Origin: a virus
Lineage: Duplodnaviria; Caudoviricetes
Virus record (IMG/VR): IMGVR_UViG_3300034965_000022
Coordinates: 1 to 31,238 of that record
DNA: 31,238 bases
Strand: one strand, 5' to 3'
Part shown: positions 13,807-31,238 of the stretch, piece after piece
How positions within the stretch are numbered: the first letter of the stretch is position 1
How the letters are laid out: each line of letters starts with the position of its first letter
Made by a program: the position numbers and the translations under genes
The notes under the pieces: generated by a model
Told to the model about the DNA's origin: nothing
The model's input: only the letters and a program-made list of their open reading frames with translations
The model's database searches: none

Positions 13807-14196
13807 CTAAAACGTGGTGACTTTCCATCCTTTCGGCAAGGAATATCCCAAATATCTGTCGTTGGTAGGATCATAATATCCGAGTGAGCCAGCATCAACT
13901 ATGACATGGTAGCCTGTGCCAGTATCTATCGGGAGCACTTTCACAGTCCATCCAGACTGCTTGGCCAGATACTGCATGAGCACACACATGTCAAAGCAGG
14001 TTCCTTGCCTCGTCTGTAATGTCGTCTCTGCTCGTGCTACGGTATCTGTATCATCCTTAACATTGTCATACCTGATGTTGTCATATACCCACTCGTTGAT
14101 CTGGGACAGGCTCTGGAACCTGTCTGGCATAACGGTGGGCAATGACGCGCATGATACAAAGAGCAAGGCCGCAAGAAGAAAAAATTTATTTTTCAT
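13807..14196 (-). CDS. Transglutaminase-like (Cys-His-Asp) lipoprotein
   Basis: Start re-assigned: MKNKFFLLAALLFVSC lipoprotein signal. Contains WVYDNIRY, TL..RQGTCFD, YHVIV and YYDPT. Confidence 0.85.
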   Translation of the reverse strand: MKNKFFLLAALLFVSCASLPTVMPDRFQSLSQINEWVYDNIRYDNVKDDTDTVARAETTLQTRQGTCFDMCVLMQYLAKQSGWTVKVLPIDTGTGYHVIVDAGSLGYYDPTNDRYLGYSLPKGWKVTTF

Positions 14197-14197
14197 C

Positions 14198-14677
14198 TTA
14201 GAATACCTCGTCAAAGCTGTACGCATATCCTACTGGCATGTCAGATACATTACCAGTTCTAGGGTCTATGACTATGTTGCCAAAGCGAACCTGAGCATGG
14301 TTTACATCTCCACCAGACTCTACAGAACGAGAGACAGAGTATGTTCCACACACAATCTCTCCATCCTCATGCATACCGTAATGTGCAATGTTGAGGTAGA
14401 GAACAGCAAAATCCGCACAGGTTCCTATGCCAGACTCGATGGTATCTTTGGGATTATTCCAAGTCTCGACATCTGAGTAGGTGTAGTCGTATTTAGTATG
14501 AGCACGAATCCAAATGGCTATTTTGGAATATGTATCCAATGTGTCAAACTCAGGAAGGTGATAGAGGGTATGTCCAACAGCAGAGGACTCAAGATACTTG
14601 TCCTCAAATGCGTTGAATACAGGCTGGCAGGAGGTGAGAGAGAGTATGACAGCAAGCACAAGTATAATCTTTTTCAT
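14198..14677 (-). CDS. Transglutaminase-like / BTLCP-like (Cys-His-Asp) lipoprotein
   Basis: Start re-assigned: MKKIILVLAVILSLTSC lipoprotein signal. Contains WNNPKDTIESGIGTCADFAVL, NHAQV and VIDP. Confidence 0.85.
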   Translation of the reverse strand: MKKIILVLAVILSLTSCQPVFNAFEDKYLESSAVGHTLYHLPEFDTLDTYSKIAIWIRAHTKYDYTYSDVETWNNPKDTIESGIGTCADFAVLYLNIAHYGMHEDGEIVCGTYSVSRSVESGGDVNHAQVRFGNIVIDPRTGNVSDMPVGYAYSFDEVF

Positions 14678-14701
14678 CGTGTCCCCCTTTGGACAGTATC
14701 T

Positions 14702-14730
14702 AATATACCATATCTTGGTGAAAAAAGCAA
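14702..14730 (-). promoter_or_regulatory. Sigma-70-type promoter for the lipoprotein pair
   Basis: TTGCTT-N17-TATATT with extended -10 TG. Confidence 0.75.
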
Positions 14731-14736
14731 GAAAAC

Positions 14737-15153
14737 TCAATCTTTTTCGAAACATTTCTCAAGTTTGTACTCTCTCCATTTCTGGGCAAACTCTGGATAT
14801 TTTTCCATATAGTCCTTTCTGGTTGTCTTTACAAACGTCCACAGGTAGTACGGATTGATGGGAGAGCCTATATCATCCAAGCACCTGTTTATCCAGATCA
14901 TCATGGCACCAGCATTGTCTAGGTTTTCCTCAAGCCACATCATGTCAGTTGTGGCCGTCCATTTGCCGTTCTTGATCAAAGGATTTGAGCCATAGAAAAT
15001 AAATTTTTTTTCTTCATCCTCTGTCACATGCCAGTTGAGGAACAACCCAAAGTCTGCAAACCTGTCCTGAAGCTGTCTCCTCATTCCCTGAAGAAATGGA
15101 TCGCGTTTAGTCATAGTTCCATCTATGATCCTAGAGAGTTCTGATCCTGTCAT
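14737..15153 (-). CDS. Hypothetical protein (138 aa) downstream of the initiator
   Basis: RBS AGGAGG; start abuts the initiator stop. Confidence 0.75.
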   Translation of the reverse strand: MTGSELSRIIDGTMTKRDPFLQGMRRQLQDRFADFGLFLNWHVTEDEEKKFIFYGSNPLIKNGKWTATTDMMWLEENLDNAGAMMIWINRCLDDIGSPINPYYLWTFVKTTRKDYMEKYPEFAQKWREYKLEKCFEKD

Positions 15154-16329
15154 TTATTCTTCCTCCTTGTAATAGTCATCGTCTGTCCACAATCCAGCCT
15201 TGATAAGGGTGTCGAGTATGTTGTCCCTCGTCATGGCTGTCACATATTTGTCTGGCATCTTTATGTTGTTGAAAAATATGCCGTTTTCCCTTCCCTCAAA
15301 ATGTTGCTGGTTTGAGCACCACCACTGTATCCATGATGGCAACACATTGGCGTTATCCATGATCTTTCGCACAGCCCTTCGGATGTTGATATCCTCAGAA
15401 TCCCAGTCGGGAACATATCGGTTAGTCCAGATGTTGGCCGCGTCCAGAGCCTTTATGCTGATCCTCCTGTCCTCCGCATCCATCCTCGACTGCGCGTTCT
15501 GTGAATCCCATGCCAACTGCTCATCCTTCATTTCCTTGATAAACCTATGCATGTTGGCCTTTGCAATAAGGATGCTCCTGTCAGTCTTCTCGGCTGTCCG
15601 CCAGTGGCACCAAGTGTCCCTGTATTTCCAGAACGACTGCAAGGTATCCATGGAAAACGAGGCGGCACGGAAGGCGTTTGGCACATGGTTCTTTCCGGGG
15701 AAGTTTTCGTCAAACCAACTGATGATGGTGTCCTCAAGCATCTGCCTGTTTTTCTGACTCAATGCTTTGGTTGTATCAGTTGCTTCTCCCTCATGTTCCA
15801 GAGAGTCGGTTGGTTCTGGCTCCAATGTGTCAGAAAATAATTCCTCGGAAGAATTAGTATTCTTTAATTTGTATTCTTCCTTAGTATTATTTATGTCGGT
15901 TTGGCGGGGGTTGCAATCCCTGTTTGGCGGGGGTTGCAATCCCTGTTTGGCGGGGATAGCGATAACCCTGTTTGGCGGGGTATTGTTTCTCTTCCTTCGG
16001 CAGTCATAATAGTCTGGAAGATCAATAATCTTGTCCCAGTGTGTAAGTGTGTAAGTATTCCATTTTGCCTTGCCTCCACGGGATGTAGATGGAACCTTGA
16101 TAACACCCCGTATTTTCATGCTTTTGATATTTTCCTCAACTGTAGATAACGCCAGTCCCAAGTCCTTGGCGATCGTGGACTGAGTGGGAAATGCTGATCC
16201 CTTGTCTCCAAAGCATCGTGCGGCAAGATAGATATAGATCATCATCTCCATGGCATCCATTTTCTTTGCTCCCAGACCAAACAAAAACTCATTTGGAATC
16301 TGGATAAAATTTGGCCCTGTTACTTTCAT
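15154..16329 (-). CDS. Replication initiator (N-terminal HTH_36-like winged helix)
   Basis: Start re-assigned to ATG 16329 (RBS AAGGAG). FIQIPNE..., IYIYLAARC....AFPTQSTIAKDLGLALSTVEENIKSM..RGVI...NTYTL. Iterons lie in the linker, as in lambda O-type genes. Confidence 0.85.
   Translation of the reverse strand: MKVTGPNFIQIPNEFLFGLGAKKMDAMEMMIYIYLAARCFGDKGSAFPTQSTIAKDLGLALSTVEENIKSMKIRGVIKVPSTSRGGKAKWNTYTLTHWDKIIDLPDYYDCRRKRNNTPPNRVIAIPAKQGLQPPPNRDCNPRQTDINNTKEEYKLKNTNSSEELFSDTLEPEPTDSLEHEGEATDTTKALSQKNRQMLEDTIISWFDENFPGKNHVPNAFRAASFSMDTLQSFWKYRDTWCHWRTAEKTDRSILIAKANMHRFIKEMKDEQLAWDSQNAQSRMDAEDRRISIKALDAANIWTNRYVPDWDSEDINIRRAVRKIMDNANVLPSWIQWWCSNQQHFEGRENGIFFNNIKMPDKYVTAMTRDNILDTLIKAGLWTDDDYYKEEE
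15832..15980. repeat. Replication origin: four iterons plus adjacent AT-rich tract
   Basis: GTTTGGCGGGG at 15899, 15922, 15945 and 15970 (spacing 23/23/25, three preceded by CCCT), next to AT-rich 15832-15895. Confidence 0.8.
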
Positions 16330-16351
16330 TTCTGTTCTCCTTTTGGAAAAT

Positions 16352-16453
16352 AAAAAAGTCGTAAACAAAAGAGAGGTGGCGGTCTCCCCTTTGCTCACGA
16401 CTAAAAAATTCTGTCTGACTGTTTTAGGTTTGTCTTTCCGCCACAGTCAGACA
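16352..16453 (-). promoter_or_regulatory. Two-hairpin structured leader upstream of the initiator (attenuator-like)
   Basis: 11-bp stem 16412-16422/16443-16453, then a long stem 16357-16402 followed by U-tract. GUGGCGG in the first hairpin is complementary to the CCGCCAC loop of the second. Confidence 0.6.
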
Positions 16454-16936: not shown

Positions 16937-16965
16937 AGTATATCATCCTACCTACGCAAAAGCAA
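16937..16965 (-). promoter_or_regulatory. Sigma-70-type early promoter
   Basis: TTGCTT-N17-TATACT with extended -10 TG; same -35 hexamer as the 14702-14730 promoter. Confidence 0.78.
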
Positions 16966-17403
16966 GTAGGATTCAACCAAAATGACTGGAACCAATATGG
17001 ATATGCTAATGGTGCAAACCTTGTTCCAGTTTCTCGAAAGCGTCAATGATAATGACAAGCTTTGAAATTGCGTCATCTGTTGCTTCAGTAGCGACTCTTG
17101 CTGACTCAATAATGCCTTGTCGGACTCTATTTGCCTCGTCAAGCTTTCTATAATCCTCTCTTGCTCGGCTATTTTCTGATCTGAGGCCAGCAACGATGCC
17201 CGCAAGTCGTCCAACGTCTGCCTCTCGGTCAGCAACTGACTTTCCAAGAGCCCTATTTGTGTCTTCAAGGATAAGTTGTTTTGCTCTATAATCCTCAATT
17301 GTTCTCTGGCTTGGTCTGACAACGAGAAACCAGACTGCGACTGAGCAAAGAATGGCACCAAGAGCAACACCGATAAGAAAAATAAATTTTTTCTCCACAT
17401 CAT
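16948..17403 (-). CDS. Signal peptide + coiled coil + C-terminal TM protein (spanin-position partner)
   Basis: MMWRKNLFFLSVLLLVPFFAQS signal, Leu/Gln/Ser heptads, and C-terminal VCTISISILVPVILVESYLLLRR. ATGA-coupled to the holin. Confidence 0.65.
   Translation of the reverse strand: MMWRKNLFFLSVLLLVPFFAQSQSGFSLSDQAREQLRIIEQNNLSLKTQIGLLESQLLTERQTLDDLRASLLASDQKIAEQERIIESLTRQIESDKALLSQQESLLKQQMTQFQSLSLSLTLSRNWNKVCTISISILVPVILVESYLLLRR
17006..17398 (-). CDS. i-spanin-like protein (N-terminal TM + coiled coil), nested in another frame
   Basis: GTG 17398: (M)EKKFIFLIGVALGAILCSVAVWFLVVR followed by ~100 aa of Ala/Arg/Glu coiled coil. Located right after the holin. Confidence 0.65.
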   Translation of the reverse strand: MEKKFIFLIGVALGAILCSVAVWFLVVRPSQRTIEDYRAKQLILEDTNRALGKSVADREADVGRLAGIVAGLRSENSRAREDYRKLDEANRVRQGIIESARVATEATDDAISKLVIIIDAFEKLEQGLHH

Positions 17404-17603
17404 TTACCCAATGGCTTTTGGGTCTCACCCTTGAGGTGTTTCCAAAGCTCGCGTGAACCAATGAGTGTGGCCCATGCCAACGTAAATGTTATCTCAGATA
17501 GCTTACCCAAGAATAATCCAGCCGATGCCAGAACGGCAAACGCGCCCTTGATGCTCCACAGTTTGTATAGAAGGCTACCTATCCTCTCTATGATCTTATT
17601 CAT
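17400..17603 (-). CDS. Putative holin
   Basis: 67 aa with two hydrophobic segments and a basic C-terminus; follows the endolysin with ATGA overlap. Confidence 0.65.
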   Translation of the reverse strand: MNKIIERIGSLLYKLWSIKGAFAVLASAGLFLGKLSEITFTLAWATLIGSRELWKHLKGETQKPLGK

Positions 17604-18028
17604 GTCTTAGCCTCGTGGTGCGGGCTATCGGTTGACTTGAAATAGTAGCCAGCGACAAGTCCGCATTGTGTGGATATATCCGCTATCTGCTTCCAGACAG
17701 AATTTGGTGCTGTCCACCATACCTTGCCGGCCTTCTTTGGGGCTATATCCAACGCCAATCCCAACAGGTGCTTGGATTGTAGAGTCCATGTCACCTTGTC
17801 CTTGTTCTCTTCATCAGACAAGAGCCATAGCCCAGCAGATTTCCTGAGCCTATTGGTTGTCACCAGTGGCTCTCGCCCCTGTGCATAGTATGCCTCCTGA
17901 ACAGCCTTGTCACGAAGAGTCTCGTTTATCACATATTGTATCCCTGCGTCATCCAAAGCCTTCAGGAAAGCCCTTACGGTAACCTGAAAGTCTGGATTCA
18001 ACAGCCCTATATCAGAATGTAGTGGCAT
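17600..18028 (-). CDS. Endolysin, M15-family (L-Ala-D-Glu-type) zinc peptidase
   Basis: Start re-assigned to ATG 18028 (RBS AAGGAG). ETLR...Q..YYAQGR, SKHLLGLALD (SxHxxGxAxD) and DSPHHE. Confidence 0.9.
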   Translation of the reverse strand: MPLHSDIGLLNPDFQVTVRAFLKALDDAGIQYVINETLRDKAVQEAYYAQGREPLVTTNRLRKSAGLWLLSDEENKDKVTWTLQSKHLLGLALDIAPKKAGKVWWTAPNSVWKQIADISTQCGLVAGYYFKSTDSPHHEAKT

Positions 18029-27225: not shown

Positions 27226-30200
27226 TTATCGTGATCTGGCCTTGGCGACGACTGCCGCTTCGCCCTTCTTGAACTCAGGAAGCACTGATATGAGCACAAC
27301 CTTGGAGTTTGTGTCCAACTTCAGGCTCGTTCCCAGTGTCCTCTGGAACTGTGGTTGCATCCTCAAGCGAACATAGCCTCCATCGTTGTAGTCAACAGGG
27401 TTCACGTTCCAGTTGACGGTCTGCACATGCGATGAATCCTCATCTATCGTGTAGGAAGTACCATTTACAGCCATCACATCCTTGTTCTCGTTGTATATAG
27501 TTACTACCCATGCGGAAAGTATACTTTTGTCGTTCAAATTGAAGCCGTAATATGGCGTTTGTATACTCAGAGGCACGACAGTTGATCCAGAAAGAGGAGA
27601 ATAGGTGTATTTCCAGTTGTTTGTGTTGTTCGAGATGACTATTCCATCCTTGGTGGAGTAGTATTTGAGCAAAGTCTGTGTGGCCTTCTTCGGATTCTCG
27701 GTTATCACAGAATCTCGCACCCAGATGAATGATGTGTCAGTGTCAAACAGGAGCGTGTTGTCCACAACATTGAACAATCCTGAGTTCACCTTTGGCATCA
27801 TGTTCATCCTCTTGAACTTGTTGAGGTTTCGTCCTCCCGAGAATGTGTATATTGAGTTGTCAAAGTTGGAGAGGAAATAAATCTCTGTTGGGGATGATGC
27901 AATGTATTGGAGTCCAACTGCGCCGCACAAGAGAGTCTTTGAGTTGAAGATGCCGTTTACCTCATCAATAGATGCCGCATAGATGTTGTTGCCATCGAAG
28001 ATGTAGTTCTGTCCAAACAGCACAAATGACGTATAGGTTCCCGTGATGTCATTGCCTATGGAGTATCCATCGTAGGATGGCTTCAGGAAGATGGTCACAC
28101 CTCCGACAGTCGCAGTTCCAAGGCCATAGTCCACACCCAATGAGGTTGGGATGATGGTGGTGGCTACATAGACGGTGTTGACTCGTGTCGAGACGACAAG
28201 CTCTGATCCATCGTTGAGGGTGGAGTAGGAGTAAATGTCGTTGATGAACGTATCAACCGAGTAGTTGCCGACTGATGTAGAGACTACAGGTATTCTGTAG
28301 CCTATGGCGTCTATGTTGGCAGAGGTTGGGCTCACGATCGTCACAAGCTTGTCGCCTGTATCGATCGAGTTGGAATATTTTCCTTGGATATAGGTCGCCA
28401 CCTTGGTGGACACAGATGGAACAGCGGATGAGGTGAAGAGCATTCGGTTGTTGTAGTCTATCGAACCTAGCTCTAGGGTAGATGAGAATGGATCGATGAT
28501 GTTCAATGGCGAGATGGAGTTTAGCTTGTAGATGTTGGTGTCAATCTTCTGTATCCTGTCATCGATAGATGTTCCTATCTTGACTACTACAAACTTGTTG
28601 TTGTACTGGTAGAGAATCTTGTCATCATCCTCGATCATTGGTGTATAGGTGTCGTCAAACTCTCCCACGTTGGTGATGATGGTTCCGAGCGTGTCGGAGG
28701 CCACACCATCCAAGAGAGCTACAGAGAGATACGACTGGACGCCAGAGGTCCAGCCAACCCTAAACTCAAATGGCTTTGATGGGGTCAGGTTCAGGTTGTT
28801 GTTAAGCTTGCCGTAGGCATTTACAAGTGTGTTGGAGTTGGACTGCACAATCTGGTAAAGTCCAGAGGTGGACGCCTGAAACTGCGGGATATAGTTGTAA
28901 ATGTTGGTAGCCGAAGTCGATAGCCTGAAGGTGAAGTCGGAATATCCGAATCCAGCCTGTGACTGCAAGACGTTTCCGTTGCCAAGCGTGTAGACGGCAG
29001 GTGGATAGACGACAGAGCCTGAGAAGCTAATAAAGTCGGTGTATCCGACAAGTCCTGTACACTTGATGTTTGAGGCGTCATATATGTGGCGGGCGGTTGT
29101 GTCTGAGGATGAGACAATATGGCGGGTGAGATTGTTGGATACCTGCGGAATGGCATAGCGGCAGTTGATGGTAGAGATGGCCTTTGTAGAGTTGTCGAGT
29201 GTATACGCCTTGTTTAAGCTATTGCCTGTGAGGTTCACAAGGTACAGTCCATTCTCATATCTGTAGACATACAAATATCCCAAAGAGTTGAAACCTGTCA
29301 AAAGGTTGGCTGTGACAGTTCCTCCATCAGAATAGAACGGGGTGAAGGCACCTGTTGACGACATTGAGTTGACTGCCGAGGCATTTCCTGAGACGACAAA
29401 CTGGTTATTGTAGACAACGATCGACCAGATGTTGTTTGATCCTATCAATGTGGCGTTGTTGGCCACACCTGATCCAGATGTGTATACAGTCTTGTTGGCA
29501 AGGTTGTCGAATGATCCTATCCTTCCGCCTATTCCTCCCACAGCAAGCACATTTCCACTTGGGCAGAATGTGTTGATGGCGTTGGAGCCCAAAAGTGTGG
29601 CGTTGTCGGAGAAGGCTATGTTATTGAAATAATATATCGAAGAATTTGATGTAAGTGCAACTGAAAATAGCAAAACCATATTTAAGCTGGATACGGCGTT
29701 GGATACGGCAAATGAAGACACTGTTGATATAAAAGACCAGCTTGTCGCATTAGTAGATGTAGCAAACTGTGCCGTTGTGCTTGATATTGAAGATATCGCG
29801 GTGTAGACACCATTTAGATATACCACGGAAGCCCAAGAGCCAGCAGGTGCTGGTGTGGTAACAAATGTCCATGATGTTCCGTTTGATGATGTAGCCATGG
29901 CGGCGGTTGTTGATGTAGAATTCGCAAGCGCAAAAAACAAACCATTTGCATATCGTATTCTTGCCCACGCCGCCGCAGGTGCGGATGTGGTGGCAAATGT
30001 CCATGATGATCCATTTGAAGAATATGCCAATCCGGCAGTTGTGCTTGTAGTAAATACCATGGCAACAAAAAAACCATTTCCAAAAGTCATATCTTGCCAT
30101 ATAGACGCAGGTGCGGATGTGGTGGCAAATGTCCATGATGATCCATTTGAAGAATATGCCAATCCAGTATTGGTTGTGGACGAAAAACATTGCGCGACAA

Positions 30201-31238
30201 AAACACTATTGCCAAAGGCGACAGATCGCCAGTTTCCACCCGGAGCAGAAGTAGTCCTAAATGTCCAGTTGATGCCATCTGGACTGGTTGCAATACCAGC
30301 AGTTGTGCTGGTTGTATTTGCTACAGCGACAAATAATCCATTTCCATAGGCAATGGATGACCAAGTTCCACCCGGAGCGGTAGTTGTCCTAAATGTCCAG
30401 TTGATGCCATCTGGACTGGTTGCAATACCAGCAGTTGTGCTGGTTGTACTACATACGGCAACCCAAAGTCCATTTCCATATACAGCAGAAGCAAAATAAC
30501 CCGGAAGATCAGAGATTTTTAGGATCACATTTGAGTTATATTTCCATTCCATTCCAACTTGGTTATAGTTTATCCAAGAATATCCCCCAAACGATCCCAC
30601 CAGTCCACCTGCGCCTCCAACAACCAACTGTCCTTGAAACTGGACCATGGCGTTGATCGCGTTGGCCCCGATGACTGTGCCATTGTTGGTGGGGTAGAGA
30701 GGGGTGGAGGCGGTTGTGTAGATAAGCTTCTGTGAGGTGTCGGATTTTGAGACAGCTATTCCAGCAGTAGTTGAAGCTGTAAAAGCAACAGCTACCCATA
30801 ATCCGTTACCATAGGCAACAGAATACCATGCGCCACCGGGAGTTGTGGTAGTCCTAAATGTCCAGTTGATGCCATCTGGACTGGTTGCAATACCAGCAGT
30901 CGTTGAAATTATAACGGCAACAGCTACCCATAATCCGTTACCATAGGCAACGGAACTCCAACTGCCACCGGGAGCTGTGGTAGTCCTAAATGTCCATGTG
31001 ATGCCATCTGGACTGGTTGCTATACCAGCAGTCGTTGAAACTGTAGCGGCAACAGCTACCCATAATCCGTTGCCATAGGCAACAGATATCCAACTGACAC
31101 CGGGAGCTGTGGTAGTCCTAAATGTCCATGTTATACCATCTGGACTGGTTGCTATACCAGCAGTAGTTGAAGCTGTAAGAGCAACAGCTACCCATAATCC
31201 GTTACCATAGGCAACAGAATGCCATGCGCCACCGGGAG
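27226..31238 (-). CDS. C-terminal part of giant tail (nozzle-position) protein
   Basis: The frame of ORF 27226..30648 stays open up to 31238. The C-terminus (PLSIQTPYY...YVRLRMQPQFQR..G..LKL) resembles the end of podovirus nozzle proteins. Joined length is at least ~1,880 aa. Confidence 0.88.
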   Translation of the reverse strand, partial: PGGAWHSVAYGNGLWVAVALTASTTAGIATSPDGITWTFRTTTAPGVSWISVAYGNGLWVAVAATVSTTAGIATSPDGITWTFRTTTAPGGSWSSVAYGNGLWVAVAVIISTTAGIATSPDGINWTFRTTTTPGGAWYSVAYGNGLWVAVAFTASTTAGIAVSKSDTSQKLIYTTASTPLYPTNNGTVIGANAINAMVQFQGQLVVGGAGGLVGSFGGYSWINYNQVGMEWKYNSNVILKISDLPGYFASAVYGNGLWVAVCSTTSTTAGIATSPDGINWTFRTTTAPGGTWSSIAYGNGLFVAVANTTSTTAGIATSPDGINWTFRTTSAPGGNWRSVAFGNSVFVAQCFSSTTNTGLAYSSNGSSWTFATTSAPASIWQDMTFGNGFFVAMVFTTSTTAGLAYSSNGSSWTFATTSAPAAAWARIRYANGLFFALANSTSTTAAMATSSNGTSWTFVTTPAPAGSWASVVYLNGVYTAISSISSTTAQFATSTNATSWSFISTVSSFAVSNAVSSLNMVLLFSVALTSNSSIYYFNNIAFSDNATLLGSNAINTFCPSGNVLAVGGIGGRIGSFDNLANKTVYTSGSGVANNATLIGSNNIWSIVVYNNQFVVSGNASAVNSMSSTGAFTPFYSDGGTVTANLLTGFNSLGYLYVYRYENGLYLVNLTGNSLNKAYTLDNSTKAISTINCRYAIPQVSNNLTRHIVSSSDTTARHIYDASNIKCTGLVGYTDFISFSGSVVYPPAVYTLGNGNVLQSQAGFGYSDFTFRLSTSATNIYNYIPQFQASTSGLYQIVQSNSNTLVNAYGKLNNNLNLTPSKPFEFRVGWTSGVQSYLSVALLDGVASDTLGTIITNVGEFDDTYTPMIEDDDKILYQYNNKFVVVKIGTSIDDRIQKIDTNIYKLNSISPLNIIDPFSSTLELGSIDYNNRMLFTSSAVPSVSTKVATYIQGKYSNSIDTGDKLVTIVSPTSANIDAIGYRIPVVSTSVGNYSVDTFINDIYSYSTLNDGSELVVSTRVNTVYVATTIIPTSLGVDYGLGTATVGGVTIFLKPSYDGYSIGNDITGTYTSFVLFGQNYIFDGNNIYAASIDEVNGIFNSKTLLCGAVGLQYIASSPTEIYFLSNFDNSIYTFSGGRNLNKFKRMNMMPKVNSGLFNVVDNTLLFDTDTSFIWVRDSVITENPKKATQTLLKYYSTKDGIVISNNTNNWKYTYSPLSGSTVVPLSIQTPYYGFNLNDKSILSAWVVTIYNENKDVMAVNGTSYTIDEDSSHVQTVNWNVNPVDYNDGGYVRLRMQPQFQRTLGTSLKLDTNSKVVLISVLPEFKKGEAAVVAKARSR
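27495..27504 (-). promoter_or_regulatory. GTAACTATAT motif, intragenic copy
   Basis: Exact copy ~290 nt upstream of the ejection-gene cluster. Confidence 0.5.
29640..30485 (-). repeat. 44-aa repeat block 2 (more diverged, ~6-7 units)
   Basis: YGNG.FVA....STTAG.A.S.(D/N)G..WTF.TT.AP units; a 60-bp identity at 29974-30033 and 30106-30165, 132 bp apart. Confidence 0.9.
30752..31238 (-). repeat. 132-bp tandem coding repeats, block 1, right part (4 units)
   Basis: CCCATAATCCGTT at 30795, 30927, 31059 and 31191. Confidence 0.95.

Follow-up and report, generated by a model that had tools for sequence, protein, structure and literature searches.

Two almost fully overlapping genes, designated ORF A and ORF B, lie at the end of the lysis cassette of the phage genome analyzed here, and both reading frames are under selection. 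Judging from the sequences, the pair falls outside the membership criteria of both known spanin classes but in all likelihood acts as spanins do, and this spanin-like system is real, conserved, and apparently undescribed. The window, i.e., the whole stretch of DNA that was analyzed, is a virus record of 31,238 bases that was rated complete and contains terminase, portal, and capsid genes. Signal, transmembrane (TM), and lipobox calls throughout were made with hydropathy and pattern heuristics.

Layout of the lysis cassette

On the minus strand, the M15 endolysin is followed by a holin-like ORF and then by ORF A/ORF B, which is the lysis-cassette position of two-component spanins. The endolysin (17600–18025, minus strand) was assigned to the peptidase M15 family (Pfam PF13539, E 1.2e-6; PHROG endolysin, E 8.7e-14), and its best named relatives were Treponemataceae. 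The holin-like small membrane protein (17400–17603, minus strand; 67 aa) was named by position, size, and hydrophobicity; it gave no Pfam or PHROG match, and a counterpart with 56% identity occupies the same place in the related locus L002. ORF A (16948–17403, minus strand) encodes 151 aa, whereas ORF B (17006–17398, minus strand), which begins with GTG and encodes 130 aa, is nested in the −1 (+2) frame of ORF A. At the tandem start (17396–17403, minus strand), the stop codon of the holin-like gene overlaps the ATG of ORF A, and the GTG of ORF B follows 5 nt on, 2 nt past the second ATG of ORF A. Among the sequencing runs listed as containing this DNA, none was an RNA run, and the reads of the one DNA run covered parts of the holin and endolysin genes only.

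The initial annotation had described two ORFs 5 nt apart in different frames after an endolysin and a holin-like gene, with a hydrophobic N-terminus and heptads in both frames over approximately 390 nt. These coordinates were confirmed, and the overlap was found to be 393 nt. The overlap is extreme in that two secreted or membrane proteins share this DNA with starts only a few bases apart.

Features of the ORF A and ORF B proteins

ORF A starts with an SPase I-type signal (about residues 1–20/22), in which the h-region ends in ..PFFAQS/QS and Cys is absent. A coiled coil follows (about residues 28–122; a/d hydrophobic fraction of 0.70 in one register), and the protein finishes with a weak hydrophobic helix (about residues 131–149; KD19 of 2.11) that contains Glu, ends in RR, and leaves a two-residue tail. 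In the case of ORF B, an N-terminal TM (about residues 5–27), uncleaved according to the heuristic call, precedes a coiled coil with a/d hydrophobic fractions of 0.68/0.64, and the AlphaFold model consisted of one helix (residues 2–129, pLDDT 88.7). Accordingly, the proposed architecture, namely, a cleavable-type signal without lipobox, a coil, and a C-terminal hydrophobic segment in A and an N-terminal TM with a coil in B, was upheld.

Cys18 of ORF B is located inside the TM and is invariant in the five closest B sequences. As it is preceded by Leu/Val and followed by approximately nine hydrophobic residues, the pattern scan did not count it as a lipobox. No lipobox was found in ORF A or ORF B, and a six-frame scan of the genome gave only two transglutaminase-like lipoproteins. 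The ORF A and ORF B ectodomains also lack a periplasmic Cys for intermolecular disulfides; among the 22 TM-type ectodomains of each protein, any Cys was present in three for A and in six for B.

Dual-frame coding

When the ORF A protein was fixed and synonymous codons were redrawn by the codon usage of the 31,238-base window, the probability of an open ORF B was 10^-3.2 over 34 stop opportunities; with ORF B fixed, that of an open ORF A was 10^-3.1 over 31 stop opportunities. In the related loci L002 and L004, with B proteins 58% and 64% and A proteins 55% and 60% identical to those of this phage, both frames are open, B again starts 5 nt after A, and the start overlaps the preceding stop codon in the same way. 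Between this phage and L002, the differences at the three codon positions of the overlap were almost equal (0.26, 0.28, and 0.35). Third-position changes at identical residues amounted to 18/72 in the A frame and 14/74 in the B frame, compared with 41–69% by the same measure in six genes of this phage and L002 that served as controls, and the 18-codon tail of ORF A past ORF B returned to the ordinary pattern (0.61, 0.22, and 0.83).

Dual-frame conservation in homologues, which had been suggested as a check, was found in these close relatives and also in genome loci selected with the A profile. The +2 frame was open for at least 314 nt in 30/30 of the latter and the +1 frame was open beyond 151 nt in 0/30, these loci being the best returned and including one identical to a training sequence and several close relatives. 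In seven control coiled-coil matches outside the group, the +2 frame was open for at most 244 nt. Moreover, the signal or anchor particular to each frame is retained among proteins that are about 20% identical. No stable RNA structure was found at the starts or at an invariant 34-nt block near the end of B (z −0.83 to +0.67, four sequences), and the block was read as a probable dual-coding constraint.

Gene callers record only B in the clade of this phage, and ORF A is uncalled in the protein database. This record is what favors a single real gene with the other frame as a shadow of coiled-coil codon usage. Such a shadow is highly improbable in view of the recoding test, the third-position constraint, the contrast between open +2 and +1 frames, the shorter open frames of the control coiled coils, and the separately maintained signals and anchors; by the same sequence evidence, both frames are almost certainly translated. 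As one frame is uncalled and lipobox searches fail, the pair is missed by annotation.

Distribution of the family and host

Single-sequence searches with ORF A against viral contigs, the protein database, and GenBank phages were negative; relatives were obtained through neighboring genes and profiles. Capsid relatives gave 20 loci, 18 of which were searchable, and the A profile matched 5 of these 18 records, including 5/5 of the near-complete ones. Three of the five matches were weak (E 0.014–0.058), and in all five another ORF occupied the corresponding relative frame. The endolysin alignment yielded 36 viral and 17 genome loci, and the best named were Treponemataceae, Treponema, and Breznakiella. 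The script flagged 22 of these 53 loci, and after L068 was dropped as spurious, the pair was present in 21, always in the +2 frame though either frame was allowed. Two loci, L047 (3222–3735) and L054, represent another subfamily: the anchors are arranged alike and the relative frame is unchanged, but the ORFs overlap only in part, with A beginning about 130 nt farther downstream. L051 carries a truncated pair and L078 a broken fused gene, and no pair was found near the endolysin in the remaining endolysin-selected loci. Removing 6 duplicates from the endolysin-selected set and adding 7 earlier loci gave 22 curated pairs, in which the A/B start offsets were −16, −7, −4, +2, and +5; many of these pairs are preceded by one Shine-Dalgarno sequence.

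In the order around Breznakiella, 401 genomes were searched with the 22-sequence A profile; 60 matched at E 1e-5 and 41 at E 1e-9, whereas two control samples, which were not independent (shared handles, Bacteroidota-like matches), gave 3/301 and 20/301 at E 1e-5 and none at E 1e-9. The control matches were mostly long signal-plus-coil proteins; two of the 20 genomes are unpublished, and they enter no other result. As profile matches were found in genomes of this order and few in controls, we infer that the host is a spirochaete. In a protein library, 1433 clusters matched at E 0.001; among the best 150 of them, 144 are 100–200 aa long and 120 carry a hydrophobic segment at each end. Neither the B alignment nor the terminase matched any genome contig, and the capsid protein had a sole match there, a 14-kb contig (L138) whose capsid gene is 71% identical and which lies in an archaeal Methanotrichaceae MAG; it is probably a misbinned phage contig. 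Atlas neighbors of both proteins include Spirochaetota clusters, which serve as a lead only. From these sequence relationships, the pair is regarded as a family of Treponemataceae-type phages.

One lipid-free pair (L089, G019:C1:3210194–3210631) was observed in a named and complete genome, the chromosome of Breznakiella homolactica, where it lies behind ORFs that appear tail-like by eye. In addition, a 305-aa database protein (P0047) combines an amidase-like N-terminal half with an A-type C-terminal half and may result from a frameshift error in sequencing or from read-through in gene calling.

Lipoprotein, lipid-free, and fused forms

Among 51 curated loci, B carries a lipobox in 27 and an uncleaved TM in 22, and is ambiguous in 2; polar residues follow the lipobox in the lipobox-type B. 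Thus, the absence of a lipoprotein claimed by the initial annotation holds for the locus and for the lineage of this phage, but not for the system or for the genome, which encodes the two transglutaminase-like lipoproteins at 13807–14755.

In five loci, L075 (2785–3336), L127, L128, L129, and L133, B and A are fused into one protein with a Cys-bearing N-terminal signal and a C-terminal TM; the lipobox is clear in four and doubtful in L128. Searching with L075 (tblastn, phmmer) matched 10 of 401 genomes, including the four other fused forms. Residues 7–91 of the L075 protein align to frame B of L130 and residues 67–174 to frame A, and the same was found with L132. As one fused chain matches both frames of single loci, B and A correspond to the two arms of a helical u-spanin, and by these alignments the fused and split forms are homologous, although the A profile and the fused protein did not align in hhalign. 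The single-sequence model of L075 contained helices at 29–70 and 78–177 (pLDDT 84), and its Foldseek neighbors were weak and largely antiparallel hairpins, none of which reached E 0.001.

Sequence homology between this phage's clade and the lipoprotein forms has support, though of a modest degree. Against the lipoprotein-form profile, ORF A scored 14.8 bits (reversed, −4.5) and ORF B 12.3 bits (reversed, 3.7), and TM-type ectodomains exceeded their own reversals in 21/22 cases for A and 15/22 for B. The two B profiles aligned over 22 columns with a probability of 74%.

Genomic neighborhood

In the 30 A-selected loci, a hydrolase (M15, CHAP, amidase, M23, or lysozyme-type) was found within 1.5 kb upstream of the pair in 12, a C39-like or DUF261 protein in 9 more, and no recognized hydrolase in 9; this upstream scan took in 71 of 82 ORFs. 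As the pair follows at least five unrelated peptidoglycan-hydrolase families, it is best read as a lysis gene. Counting against this reading, 7/10 of the lipid-free loci of this set had no recognized hydrolase within 1.5 kb upstream. Five of these seven, all intact lipid-free pairs (L090, L112, L113, L119, and L123), are located among host-type genes, each in a different neighborhood, with WD40 and TPR proteins, ABC permeases, MgtC, and AlbA as neighbors (1.5 kb per side seen; 15 flanking ORFs scanned). These five pairs are either remnants or domesticated copies.

DUF261 (PF03196) fills the endolysin slot upstream of the pair in L103, L107, L111, and L114, and at L002:1715–2185. One DUF261 protein matched 113 plasmid records, 112 of which are named Borrelia or Borreliella, and no annotated pair was present near DUF261 in two regions viewed on Borrelia plasmids. 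The cp32 prophages are not known to encode an endolysin; from its position, DUF261 may be an endolysin family and a candidate for these prophages.

Proposed mechanism and alternative readings

Outer-membrane disruption is quite probably the function of the pair, judging from its sequence context. A two-component outer-membrane role, as the initial annotation had proposed, turned out to be the best reading because unrelated hydrolase families stand alongside the pair and its halves match a single lipoprotein-coil-TM chain. The term SNARE-like was not supported. In SNAREs, both partners are C-anchored and zipper in parallel, whereas class I viral fusion proteins contain N-anchored and C-anchored heptad regions that fold back antiparallel. 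As ORF B is N-anchored and ORF A is C-anchored, their anchors would meet only in an antiparallel hairpin. The N- and C-anchored arms of B and A fit the class I geometry, though no sequence or fold match to class I fusion proteins was found.

From the sequences, it is an even call that A and B make up a split u-spanin of class I hairpin geometry and that, in the lipid-free lineage, the two halves have exchanged membranes. The N-anchored coil of B and the C-anchored coil of A would be the halves of a split u-spanin bridging the inner and outer membranes; once the endolysin removes the wall, the bridge would fold back into the predicted antiparallel hairpin and the two membranes would fuse. In the lipoprotein and fused forms, the lipid would sit in the outer membrane and the strong TM with its basic tail in the inner membrane. 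In the lipid-free lineage, the N-terminal helix of B, being uncleaved, would keep this protein in the inner membrane, similar to Rz, while the signal peptide of A would be removed and the weak helix at its C-terminus would land in the outer membrane. Such a swap would be allowed because the hairpin works alike whichever anchor sits in which membrane.

The anchor of A differed with the type of B. In the first set (12 loci with a B TM vs 10 with a B lipoprotein), the KD19 of the A anchor was 1.98 vs 2.44, and the A tail was 3 vs 10 aa; in both sets, the tail of TM-type loci was also less basic, and a Trp stood before their A anchor. In the second set (10 vs 20 loci), in which two ambiguous loci, both with a weak anchor, were counted with the lipoproteins, the KD19 was 1.97 vs 2.73 and the tail 1.5 vs 10 aa; a Trp before the A anchor was present in 10/10 TM-type and 4/20 lipoprotein-type loci. 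The membrane swap is suggested by this weaker A anchor with a shorter, less basic tail when B has a TM. The B label changes three to four times on a poorly resolved tree, with only one or two changes forced, so independent events are few. The anchor of ORF A itself is borderline and could still be an ordinary inner-membrane anchor, and the literature searched yielded no paper on how such a helix might be exported to the spirochaete outer membrane. If the swap is true, it would point to a hitherto undescribed route for inserting a lone helix into this membrane.

That ordinary placement underlies an alternative in which A and B both reside in the inner membrane and the outer membrane is attacked otherwise, for example by the amphipathic C-terminal helix of B or by a third partner such as the transglutaminase-like lipoproteins. 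A cleavable signal with a C-terminal hydrophobic segment and a basic end is the usual type I layout, the TM of B is strong, and one such lipoprotein is common to the two closest lipid-free relatives, G010 and G011. This arrangement is nevertheless unlikely. Two anchors in one membrane would already be folded back and would presumably store no fusion energy, G002 and G018 have lipid-free pairs but gave no match to the lipoprotein, and the weakening of the A anchor upon loss of the B lipobox is left unexplained. The opposite solution, in which the polarity of the lipoprotein forms is kept with A in the inner membrane and B in the outer membrane through non-canonical lipidation at Cys18 or release of the N-terminal helix, appears very unlikely. 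Although Cys18 is invariant in the close B sequences, its codon is produced by the codons of A near the cleavage site and may be a by-product. A lipobox-like FxAG-C occurs inside the TM of some TM-type B (L090, L113, and L119), but several others (L028, L030, L038, and L059) have no Cys in the segment. Spanins with unusual lipoboxes exist according to the available part of PMC6139136; in the present case, however, the residues past Cys18 are hydrophobic and the TM is strong and not release-prone.

A role other than fusion, namely, as an inner-membrane lysis regulator (holin partner or antiholin) or as an envelope protein that hosts also keep, would suit the intact lipid-free pairs scattered among different host-type neighborhoods, the faint holin PHROG match of the ORF B N-terminus (E 0.006), and the absence of a significant match to any spanin family. 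It is considered quite unlikely, as the fused relatives have the u-spanin layout of a lipobox with a C-terminal TM, this phage has a separate holin-like gene upstream, and long periplasmic coiled coils in both proteins would fit bridging better than timing. Compared with these alternatives, the split hairpin with swapped membranes is preferred. Its extension to a third spanin class is tentative, with doubt somewhat outweighing confidence. As drawn from the sequences, this class would comprise a class I-like helical hairpin, either fused or split over two fully overlapping frames, used by spirochaete phages, whose halves have exchanged membranes during evolution; in this lineage, one C-terminal alpha-helix, without lipid or beta-barrel, would fix a secreted protein in the outer membrane, and some hosts would keep the lipid-free pair away from lysis genes.

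Comparison with known spanins

Similar to lambda Rz/Rz1 and the embedded spanins of T7, the pair forms the last genes of the lysis cassette, shows out-of-frame nesting, has a helical periplasmic domain, and is likely to act through fusion of the inner membrane with the outer one. The TM form of B resembles Rz in topology (an N-terminal TM and a periplasmic coil), though B is the embedded gene and not the outer one. The −1 frame is known among embedded spanins, with 116 cases in the available part of PMC6139136, which also gives the nested gene a start at 0.4–0.5 of the length; here it starts at the first codons. Unlike in Rz/Rz1, each of the two products is a long coiled coil, the outer gene (ORF A) combines a cleavable signal with an anchor at the C-terminus, and this lineage has no lipobox and no Cys in the ORF A and ORF B ectodomains. 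The Rz-like phrog_89 matched 2/22 A proteins at the coiled-coil level (E 0.001–0.008) and none of the B proteins, and Pfam and PHROG scans of the A and B alignments gave generic coiled-coil matches only.

The u-spanins of the T1 gp11 type combine an N-terminal anchor and a C-terminal TM, as do the fused relatives L075 and L127. However, gp11 is a single chain with a lipobox, whereas this phage has two chains, and the gp11 family is predicted to be mainly beta (PMC6139136, available part), whereas the present family is all-helical in the models of ORF B and fused L075 and is split over two frames in most loci. In the same part of that source, spanin classes are defined with type I inner-membrane proteins outside the criteria, and no u-spanin has detectable similarity to an o-spanin. 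The homology between one-chain and two-chain forms proposed here would supply the link said there to be lacking. A type I i-spanin was anticipated by Kongari et al. (2018) as a suggestion and not as a described family, and a partner without a lipid anchor was not covered. In the lipoprotein forms, A has such a layout, and the pair would realize what was only anticipated.

Leptospira prophage spanins have been predicted by lipobox and TM (PMC8705779, as far as accessible), with the main text giving no particulars, and canonical spanin pairs are treated in the accessible parts of PMC12894885 and bioRxiv 2024.01.23.576932. Spirochaete outer membranes differ, and Borrelia lipoproteins go to the surface by default, as stated in the accessible part of PMC11784454. 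No description of such a pair was found in the literature searched, in which subscription journals were mostly outside coverage. The pair therefore provides candidate outer-membrane lysis genes for phages of Treponema-type hosts, for which none were found described. Moreover, the natural fused, split-lipoprotein, and split-lipid-free versions of what appears to be one machine would make the membrane-fusion model of spanins testable by anchor swaps.

Other features of the genome

The two transglutaminase-like lipoproteins, the only lipoproteins found in the genome, are adjacent (13807–14755, minus strand) and lie 2.2–3.1 kb downstream of the pair. One was found in two of five near-complete relatives, the same G010 and G011 as above. 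As candidates for a missing o-spanin they were set aside given the lipid-free pairs of G002 and G018, where the shared one was not found. They are probably not part of the system of the pair and possibly serve superinfection exclusion. In L065, an ORF similar to them comes after the lysis genes.

Inside the replication initiator gene (15154–16398), four near-identical short direct repeats were seen by eye at 15915–15985 and are likely origin iterons. Both ends of the record (1–1633 and 27226–31238, minus strand) contain a large tail-like gene that is rich in repeats and has an identical internal sequence at the two ends; thus, the linear record was probably opened within the repeat array of that gene.
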